This document shows, piece by piece, positions 47,573 through 47,633 of a DNA stretch of 64,000 nucleotides; position 1 is the first letter of the stretch, and each line of letters starts with the position of its first letter. A model generated the notes under the pieces. The model was not told the DNA's origin. It ran no database searches and saw only the letters and a list, made by a program, of their open reading frames with translations. This DNA is from Escherichia coli (lineage in GTDB: Bacteria > Pseudomonadota > Gammaproteobacteria > Enterobacterales > Enterobacteriaceae): NCBI RefSeq assembly GCF_003991155.1, contig NZ_CP031295.1. The stretch is one strand, 5' to 3'. The translations under genes were made by a program, and so were the position numbers.

Positions 47573-47633
47573 GGTATGCGTTTGCAGTCATTACAGTCTC
47601 CATGACGACTGTAATGACTGCAAACGCATTACC
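47573..47633. terminator. long inverted repeat between convergent crcB and shiF (possible bidirectional terminator)
   Basis: 26-bp arms GGTATGCGTTTGCAGTCATTACAGTC / GACTGTAATGACTGCAAACGCATTACC with 8-bp loop. Confidence 0.4.

Follow-up and report, generated by a model that had tools for sequence, protein, structure and literature searches.

Transposons of the Tn3/Tn1000/Tn21 type are bounded by 38-bp inverted repeats of the GGGG...ACG(C/T)TAAG type, code for a transposase of about 1000 aa with a DDE_Tnp_Tn3 domain and for a serine resolvase, generate 5-bp target duplications, and carry their cargo between tnpR and the right repeat. The Tn3-derived inverted-repeat miniature elements and mobile insertion cassettes are non-autonomous forms that are likewise bounded by Tn3-family repeats. 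Stem-loops located past a stop codon are typified by the Rho-independent terminators, with a G+C-rich stem of 5-12 bp and a U tract, and by the extragenic REP/BIME palindromes, which share a consensus and can block 3' exonucleases. More generally, long RNA stems can cause polymerase pausing, impede 3' exonucleases or serve as RNase III substrates, and long palindromic DNA can extrude as a cruciform. Operons of the ppaC-usp-eno-crcB type are known to confer fluoride resistance in Enterobacter cloacae FRM and on Pantoea plasmids (PMC5533749, PMC5971314). In E. coli, quasi-palindromes are established sites of template switching, the Ripley-type correction of imperfect inverted repeats (PMC7202029); in proteobacteria the process homogenises the arms of inverted repeats (PMC5941160), and it is able to create hairpins de novo (PMC10710096). 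In the open-access literature we found no description of the hairpin analysed here, or of a Tn3-family transposon with fluoride-resistance cargo.

The hairpin is situated in a 64-kb window (the whole stretch of Escherichia coli DNA that was analysed), in the 379-bp spacer between two convergent genes. The first of these is crcB (47130-47510, + strand), which encodes a fluoride efflux channel and is the last cargo gene of a transposon, as assigned from the ORF list, the RefSeq annotation and the Pfam CRCB match of its Rosenbergiella homologue. The second is shiF (47890-49083, - strand), which encodes an MFS transporter and is the first gene of the aerobactin module, as assigned from the ORF list, annotation and locus comparison. 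An inverted-repeat search recovered perfect arms of 23 nt (47576-47598 and 47607-47629, 100% complementary) separated by an 8-nt gap. Folding with ViennaRNA extends the stem to 26 bp once T47630 is bulged out, such that 47573-47575 pair with 47631-47633, and beyond a second bulge it adds two further pairs. With one bulge allowed, the preliminary description of a 26-bp inverted repeat and an 8-bp loop is thus correct. Its placement between the convergent crcB and shiF agrees with the gene coordinates, and its remark that the stem is longer than that of a normal terminator is borne out by the 26 bp. In full, the hairpin comprises a left arm (47573-47598), a loop (47599-47606, TCCATGAC) and a right arm (47607-47633) that includes the bulged T47630; it starts 63 nt after the crcB stop codon and ends 257 nt before the end of shiF. 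The predicted folding energy is -44.5 kcal/mol on the + strand and -45.7 kcal/mol on the - strand, with a z-score of about -9.9 to -11.5 and none of 200 shuffled sequences equally stable. The arm sequence is single-copy in the 64-kb window, where about zero chance matches are expected; 10 of the 23 nt of the perfect arm are G or C, and the G+C content of the stem is about 42-43%.

In being a stem-loop past a stop codon and between convergent genes, the hairpin resembles the Rho-independent terminators, and so stable a stem between crcB and shiF might be expected of a bidirectional terminator serving both genes, as had initially been proposed. It differs from such terminators in its long stem of modest G+C content, in a pairing that is not conserved in relatives and in the lack of a U tract: the sequence directly 3' of the stem is UGACAUAUCAG / TGACATATCAG on the + strand and AUGGAGCGAAAUU / ATGGAGCGAAATT on the - strand, neither of which is a U run. 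A terminator consensus scan of both strands, which counts at most 20 pairs, did not call the hairpin. Moreover, the shiF stop codon is 257 nt away, and the chromosomal shiF-iuc loci, whose homology to the window stops 8 bp past that stop codon, are devoid of the hairpin. We hence consider a bidirectional Rho-independent terminator very improbable, and the earlier proposal of an intrinsic terminator finds no support in the sequence. In a search of Rfam no family reached its gathering score, the sub-threshold matches being to eukaryotic and viral miRNA-precursor models (28.2 and 21.9 bits, against 200 and 43). With the REP/BIME palindromes the hairpin shares an extragenic location downstream of a gene and a potential to block 3' exonucleases; it differs from them in having no REP consensus and in being present in one copy in the window and elsewhere only within the transposon end described below.

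The sequence around the hairpin has an intact relative. A genome scan with CrcB recovered a 93%-identical protein in Rosenbergiella metrosideri, the DNA of which is 90.6% identical to window positions 46379-47572 and has at its end a Tn3-type repeat that we term IR-a. A query with the Rosenbergiella sequence led to the Enterobacter hormaechei plasmid pEB3_IMP1, in which the whole right-end region is present downstream of a resolvase gene, ppaC, usp, eno and crcB; the match covers window positions 46379-47703 at 86.7% identity. Look-ups of the pEB3_IMP1 CrcB in turn uncovered a complete transposon, for which we use the name Tn-F. It is 7601 bp long and comprises a left terminal repeat (IRL), tnpA, tnpR, a fluoride riboswitch (RF01734, 45.3 bits), ppaC, usp, eno, an ORF of 59 aa, crcB and the right end; the transposase has 1002 aa with DUF4158 and DDE_Tnp_Tn3 domains, and the resolvase (Resolvase domain) has 187 aa. 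Tn-F circulates in plasmids and chromosomes of Enterobacterales, and we found it in at least eight plasmid or chromosomal contexts, in copies that are 95-100% identical to one another. Five copies are flanked by perfect 5-bp target duplications (CAATA, TTTGT, AACTA, GTAAC and TAATA), and nine distinct right flanks, from 11 loci of which several represent the same contigs twice, all diverge directly after the tip of the right terminal repeat, IR-b. Tn-F is a member of the Tn3 family: it has terminal repeats of about 38 bp (GGGG...ACGCTAAG), a transposase and a resolvase of the expected kinds, 5-bp duplications, and cargo between tnpR and the right repeat. It differs from the Tn3/Tn1000/Tn21-type transposons in the riboswitch-controlled fluoride-resistance nature of that cargo and in possessing two extra degenerate internal repeats (IR-a and IR-c) along with a palindrome. 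No plasmid donors closer to the window than the pEB3_IMP1-type Tn-F were found.

The window contains a 1.6-kb element (46076-47701) which retains both ends of such a transposon. Its left 38-bp terminal inverted repeat (IRL, 46076-46113, + strand, GGGGGGCGAGGGCCAGTGATGTAAAAAACCACGCTAAG) has its tip towards sitD, fits the Tn3-type repeat pattern and is about 90% complementary to the right end, IR-b (47664-47701, - strand), which has its tip at 47701 towards shiF. The sequence AAAATT occurs directly outside both tips (46070-46075 and 47702-47707) and is probably a target-site duplication, with a one-base ambiguity of register for a duplication of 5 bp; a synthetic-junction query for the empty target site found no covering record. 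Adjacent to IRL is tnpA' (46114-46378, - strand), a 265-bp 3' fragment of a Tn3-family transposase gene that is cut by an internal deletion and annotated by RefSeq as a pseudogene in identical plasmids. It is followed by eno' (46379-46789, + strand), an enolase gene without its N-terminal part that is annotated as a partial phosphopyruvate hydratase. Positions 46075-46380 are 89-92% identical to IRL and the 3' end of tnpA in Tn-F (copy L029, positions 2993-3298). The joint left by the deletion is at 46378/46379-80, and homology to both Rosenbergiella (90.6%) and Tn-F (86.7-87.6%) begins exactly at 46379. From there to 47701/47703 the window is about 87% identical to the right part of Tn-F. This part contains an internal IR-a remnant (47550-47572, + strand), whose homologue is complete in the Rosenbergiella chromosome and Tn-F alike, and, just before IR-b, a stretch (47638-47663, + strand) that resembles the last ~26 nt of a Tn3-family tnpA and can be aligned with the 3'-terminal sequence of annotated Tn3-family transposase genes. 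Further, 47638-47704 is 85.7% identical to Tn-F's own IRL-proximal sequence (L029, 3058-2989).

Given that both ends of Tn-F are matched and its positions ~3298-9250 are absent, i.e. ~5.9 kb between the matched ends, the window element is, to judge from these alignments, an internally deleted and diverged (87-92% identical) relative of Tn-F. Most of tnpA, tnpR, the fluoride riboswitch, ppaC, usp and the 5' part of eno have been lost from the window copy, and an Rfam search of window positions 44000-50000 found no fluoride riboswitch. The plasmid-borne crcB has thus been deprived of its native regulation. In contrast to the Tn3/Tn1000/Tn21-type transposons, the window copy is reduced by deletion to 1.6 kb and codes for no transposase. 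It is comparable to the Tn3-derived miniature elements and cassettes in having both repeats, a passenger gene (crcB), a short direct repeat and no transposase, and it differs from them in being clearly derived, by recent deletion, from a full transposon; no sign of its having moved after the internal deletion was found. An identical 301-bp segment is present in ~780 plasmids and ~820 E. coli genomes, nearly all of them with ColV-type F plasmids, in which the genes are ordered as sitABCD, a Tn3-family tnpA pseudogene, partial eno, crcB, shiF and iucA. The island of truncated enolase and crcB in the conserved core of the ColV-type virulence plasmids is thereby explained as a 1.6-kb deletion derivative of a mobile 7.6-kb Tn3-family transposon of the Tn-F kind, and this explanation is the chief worth of the locus.

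Distant blastn searches showed that the crcB-shiF spacer is a mosaic. The hairpin is placed 68-128 bp inside the right end of the Tn3-family transposon remnant, and the repeat tip at 47701 is itself separated from shiF by two scraps of insertion sequences found in many plasmids. One is ISEc12-like (IS21 family, 47747-47803, 88% identical to istA of ISEc12), and the other is IS2-like (IS3 family, 47808-47870, 78-82% identical to IS2). In the sequence comparison, then, the true right boundary of the crcB module is the IR-b tip at 47701. The preliminary description had suggested that the hairpin marks a junction between acquired modules; the spacer is a mosaic of acquired DNA, as it implied, but the boundary between crcB and the aerobactin module falls at the repeat tip and not at the hairpin. 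The comparison that it had proposed, with aerobactin loci that lack crcB, was run on chromosomal shiF-iuc loci. These are 92% identical to the window and align only from ~47882, and not from the hairpin; on the far side of this point from shiF they carry different IS debris. The hairpin region does span an older joint, at which a degenerate Tn3-type repeat is set against another end sequence. This joint predates the ColV plasmids and is present in plasmids without aerobactin genes. The preliminary description had named membership of a conserved known element as its refutation, and this largely applies: the sequence belongs to a conserved transposon terminus, albeit one in which it has no assigned function. 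There is no ground for annotating it either as a terminator or as the junction between crcB and aerobactin.

In Tn-F, crcB is followed by IR-a, GTCTACT, an arm GGTATGCGTTT-cattggca[ct]t-CAGTC, a loop TC[CT]ATGAC, an arm GACTG-taat[ga]acagt-AAACGCATTACC, a stretch of ~30 nt and IR-b; the outer 26 nt of that stretch resemble the 3' end of tnpA. The transposon thus has a palindrome of the same geometry as the window, which is imperfect, with 11 outer and 5 inner bp, and folds at -19.6 to -24 kcal/mol (z = -3.6 to -4.8) compared to -44.5 kcal/mol in the window. Here too a T/U tract after the stem is absent. Scored against a profile of Tn3-type repeats, IR-a of Tn-F is a clear match (empirical p = 4e-5), and the region of the left arm scores as a degenerate Tn3-type repeat (p = 1.5e-4), which we term IR-c. 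This region aligns with a canonical Tn3-type repeat of pOXA-48-type Citrobacter and Morganella plasmids (reverse complement GGGGGGAGGGACAATGGAACGCAACACCAAGTAGAT, p = 4e-5), the tip of which abuts the same ATGACGACTG... sequence. The left arm of the window has lost this signal (p = 0.03), and the right arm is unsupported as a Tn3-type repeat (p = 0.035-0.11). The latter is a conserved subterminal sequence of the transposon end, common at 83-86% identity to plasmids of Morganella, Citrobacter (pOXA-48-type), Providencia, Klebsiella and E. coli. As IR-c adjoins this conserved and partly complementary sequence, an imperfect palindrome is already present in intact transposons, and the left arm of the window probably descends from IR-c with its middle 10 nt rewritten.

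These profile scores bear on the notion that the arms represent two Tn3-family transposon ends placed tip to tip, either of neighbouring elements or at an end-to-end junction. The left arm does come from a Tn3-type repeat with its tip pointing at the loop, and by eye the right arm has GACTG and AAACGCAT-ACC in mirror orientation. However, any complement of the left arm would look alike, and the right arm has the poor profile score given above; no full-length element with the right-arm sequence as its left terminal repeat was found in plasmids or metagenomes. This origin is accordingly hard to credit. A derivation of the right arm from tnpA coding sequence was also rejected, given that only 47638-47663 aligns with tnpA 3' ends and the arm itself shows ~40% identity by eye.

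A comparable question is posed by the distribution of the left arm. Sites similar to the segment 47600-47714 exist in thousands of plasmids, and some of these sites coincide with the 3' end of an annotated Tn3-family transposase gene. About 140 other plasmids share with the window only the loop (with CCATGAC conserved), the right arm, the spacer and IR-b, their homology always starting at 47600. In the Providencia and pEc78 types another Tn3-type repeat takes the place of most of IR-c, and the same repeat also ends a different tnpA downstream of a Rahnella-type crcB. The insertion sequence IS5708 (IS110 family), which lies upstream in pEc78 and pE6474, was considered as the cause of the 47600 breakpoint and dismissed, as a Providencia plasmid without the IS has the same breakpoint; a left arm beyond IS5708 in the pEc78/pE6474-type sequence was looked for and not found. 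A metagenome scan for other variants of the palindrome found only the two known types. With the Rosenbergiella homology ending at 47572 and that of the ~140 plasmids starting at 47600, the left arm would seem to be in neither "parent", as though the palindrome had arisen de novo where the crcB segment was joined in a ColV plasmid, the left arm being fold-back filler at a broken end. However, the intact Tn-F of Enterobacter and other hosts has a homologous left arm at the same place, with the same outer and inner blocks and 16 of 26 positions identical to the window. The left arm therefore predates the ColV context, and only its middle 10 nt are new. In its simple form a de novo junction is refuted, and we regard such an origin in general as exceedingly improbable.

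The new part of the arm is confined to a block at 47584-47593, which reads GCAGTCATTA in the window and CATTGGCA[CT]T in Tn-F. Not one of the 10 positions agrees with Tn-F, at a background divergence of ~12-13%, and each of them is complementary to its counterpart in the window's own right arm (47612-47621). Immediately to the left, at 47571/47572, the window has a 21-nt deletion relative to Tn-F that has removed the tip of IR-a, leaving its inner ~23 bp and taking its outer ~12-13 bp, as well as the inner end of IR-c. Two right-arm positions also differ from Tn-F, and there the window has the outgroup state CTGC. As the CATTG of the left arm is common to Tn-F and the outgroup, the state of the window's left arm is suggested to be the derived one, a direction of change read from a single outgroup lineage (the pOXA-48-type and Morganella sequences) over a short alignment. 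With the opposite polarity, a perfect ancestral palindrome may have decayed in the Tn-F clade, for instance by conversion with another copy of the repeat.

We therefore favour, with a probability of roughly 0.68, the reading that the hairpin is a structural relic without dedicated function, namely a perfected quasi-palindrome in the debris of a Tn3-family transposon end. Remnants of older Tn3-type terminal repeats are stacked in the subterminal region of the Tn-F family, and one of them, IR-c, lies beside a partly complementary sequence, with which it forms the imperfect palindrome of the intact transposons. In the lineage leading to the ColV plasmids the complement of the right arm would then have taken the place of the 10 bases that were unpaired in the centre of the left arm, with the 21-nt deletion arising just to the left. 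We infer that a single template switch within one strand during DNA synthesis (quasi-palindrome correction) made this replacement, and that selection for a terminator did not drive it. The same conversion would have wiped out the likeness of the left arm to a Tn3-type repeat. As in the known cases of such template switching, the changes are clustered in one arm of a pre-existing imperfect inverted repeat, all of them bring this arm into exact complementarity with its partner, and the sequence on either side is left as it was. The present case differs in being reconstructed from natural lineages, and in its long block of 10 nt with a 21-nt deletion nearby, and the comparison is compatible with one step or with several. 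The hairpin itself is most likely ordinary, a mutational by-product in transposon-end debris. The locus nevertheless presents a clean natural case of an imperfect inverted repeat becoming a perfect 23-26-bp hairpin with the ancestral-like and derived states both in circulation, and might lend itself to tests of template-switch mutagenesis and of the ways in which new hairpins originate.

The principal rival to this relic interpretation views the hairpin as an RNA element under selection, placed at the 3' end of the cargo operon and acting as a terminator-like barrier or a 3'-end stabiliser. It could stop read-through from sit, eno' and crcB from running antisense into the Fur-regulated shiF-iuc operon, or, in the manner of REP sequences, it could shield the crcB mRNA from 3' exonucleases. 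The setting directly 3' of the last cargo gene and between convergent genes is congenial to such a role, as is the presence of the imperfect hairpin with the same geometry in all copies of Tn-F. Complementarity also seems to grow from the pOXA-48 form through Tn-F to ColV, for which selection for a stable stem is an equally possible explanation. In pS88, qRT-PCR restricted to ORFs showed that eno', the small ORF and crcB are induced together with sitD under iron limitation, with fold-changes that fall along the series (PMC3438092), as would befit read-through in need of an end. Together with the deletion of the native riboswitch and promoter, this co-induction suggests that transcription of crcB depends on read-through from sit. 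Even in a relic, a perfect RNA stem of 26 bp in such a transcript may incidentally act as a polymerase pause site, a 3' exonuclease block or an RNase III substrate, and the DNA may extrude as a cruciform.

Against selection stands, besides the missing U tract and terminator call, the pattern of variation in the stem. Over seven distinct sequences 64% of cells are paired, 17 of the 26 pairs depart solely via unpaired cells, and there is no support for the hairpin from covariation, with 144 of 500 shuffles reaching its score. The middle 10 pairs are limited to the window lineage, and in one Tn-F variant an inner pair is broken. In addition, Tn-F ends 60 bp further on and resides in many contexts, which implies that there is no constant downstream gene to protect. 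A selected RNA element is thus unlikely, though it deserves consideration. A broader version, which we view as improbable, holds that the subterminal palindrome is functional throughout the Tn-F family for instance as an RNA or DNA hairpin that insulates the fluoride-resistance operon from flanking transcription or modulates end recognition; its stepwise growth would then be the outcome of selection that favoured a stronger barrier, independent of a U tract, between the convergent and co-induced sit and shiF-iuc units.

The invariance of the perfect hairpin in ~800 ColV-type records might also be cited in favour of selection, and it fits either recent common descent or constraint. It says little about the arms, because these plasmids are at least 99% identical overall, a level of identity that by itself explains the invariance. 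One further, weak similarity in the spacer, that of 47546-47572 to a Providencia mini-element, was initially a candidate for shared descent of the hairpin flank and is explained by both being Tn3-type repeats (IR-a and an L016-type repeat, respectively). In the few ColV variants that were inspected, the changes fall outside the arms, at 47522, at 47637 and in the C-run at 47696.

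The island of a truncated enolase gene and crcB found on ColV-type plasmids (window 46076-47701) derives by deletion from a 7.6-kb transposon of the Tn3 family, here termed Tn-F, for which we found no description in the searchable literature. Tn-F contains tnpA, tnpR, a fluoride riboswitch and the genes ppaC-usp-eno-orf59-crcB. Its copies span about positions 2993-10594 in each of the retrieved loci L027-L034, and it occurs in at least eight plasmid or chromosomal contexts, with 5-bp target duplications in five. At the island itself, the 13 nucleotides beyond the tips of the two terminal repeats (46063-46075, CATAGAGAAAATT, and 47702-47714, AAAATTCTCTCTG) are about 77% inverted-complementary, an arrangement implying insertion into an AT-rich target that was nearly palindromic. 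The gap from the transposon tip to shiF is occupied by scraps of two insertion sequences, namely an ISEc12-like one of the IS21 family (47747-47803, 88%) and an IS2-like one (47808-47870, 78-82%); homology of the aerobactin module to chromosomal loci begins at about 47882.

In intact Tn-F the fluoride riboswitch (RF01734, 45.3 bits; 6851-6925 in the L029 copy) lies upstream of ppaC. This riboswitch has been lost from the window copy, with none in the segment 44000-50000, and the plasmid crcB is therefore devoid of its native fluoride control. Read-through from sitABCD probably accounts for crcB transcription, consistent with qRT-PCR data for pS88, wherein the fold-changes fall in the order sitD > eno' > ORF > crcB (PMC3438092).

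The fluoride cluster is also found beyond Tn-F. The chromosome of Rosenbergiella metrosideri (NZ_JALBCV010000019.1) bears a usp-eno-orf-crcB cluster that shares 90.6% identity with the window and ends in the Tn3-type repeat IR-a (3417-3458 in the retrieved locus L013), beyond which are unrelated genes for UDG and a SLAC1-family protein. Either an earlier version of the transposon terminated at IR-a, or this genus is near the source of the cargo. A Rahnella-type CrcB from metagenome contigs (L016, 2878-4600) is 90% identical and is encoded in the same ppaC-usp-eno-orf-crcB operon; downstream of this crcB lies a different Tn3-family transposase gene, terminating in the repeat GGGGTCCGCTTGGAAAACGGAAAATATCCTACGCTAAG. 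Hence, at least two Tn3-family backbones have acquired the fluoride operon. The window itself has an exact canonical Tn3 terminal repeat at 4131-4168 (plus strand, GGGGTCTGACGCTCAGTGGAACGAAAACTCACGTTAAG) and a different Tn3-family repeat at 7039-7076 (minus strand, GGGGAGCCCGCAGAATTCGGAAAAAATCGTACGCTAAG), the latter resembling the Tn21/Tn1696 group. These represent other Tn3-family elements, which might supply transposase.

Three other plasmids each have an insertion sequence, of the IS3 family in two of them and IS26 in one, that terminates within 25 bp of the hairpin (47573-47633), on one side or the other, with deletion of the neighboring DNA: L038 at ~1500 (window 47549/50), L001 at ~3001 (47638/9) and L002 at ~3001 (47650/1). 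This could be a coincidence or reflect a local hot spot close to the palindrome and the transposon end. In Providencia rettgeri p15628B_125 (L011, ~3400-3603) about 230 bp consist almost wholly of Tn3-type repeat sequences, with one repeat facing right, two facing left and the conserved right-arm/IR-b end, IR-b being the right 38-bp terminal repeat; this stretch has the appearance of a stack of transposon ends or of a miniature non-autonomous element. IS110-family elements directly adjoin Tn3-type terminal repeats in pEc78 (L006, ~2590-3945), pE6474 (L005) and pEB3_IMP1 (L030, 11613-12617), and this group is known to target such repeats. IS5708 lies within the Providencia-type mini-element, and IS5075 adjoins a Tn3-family transposase.
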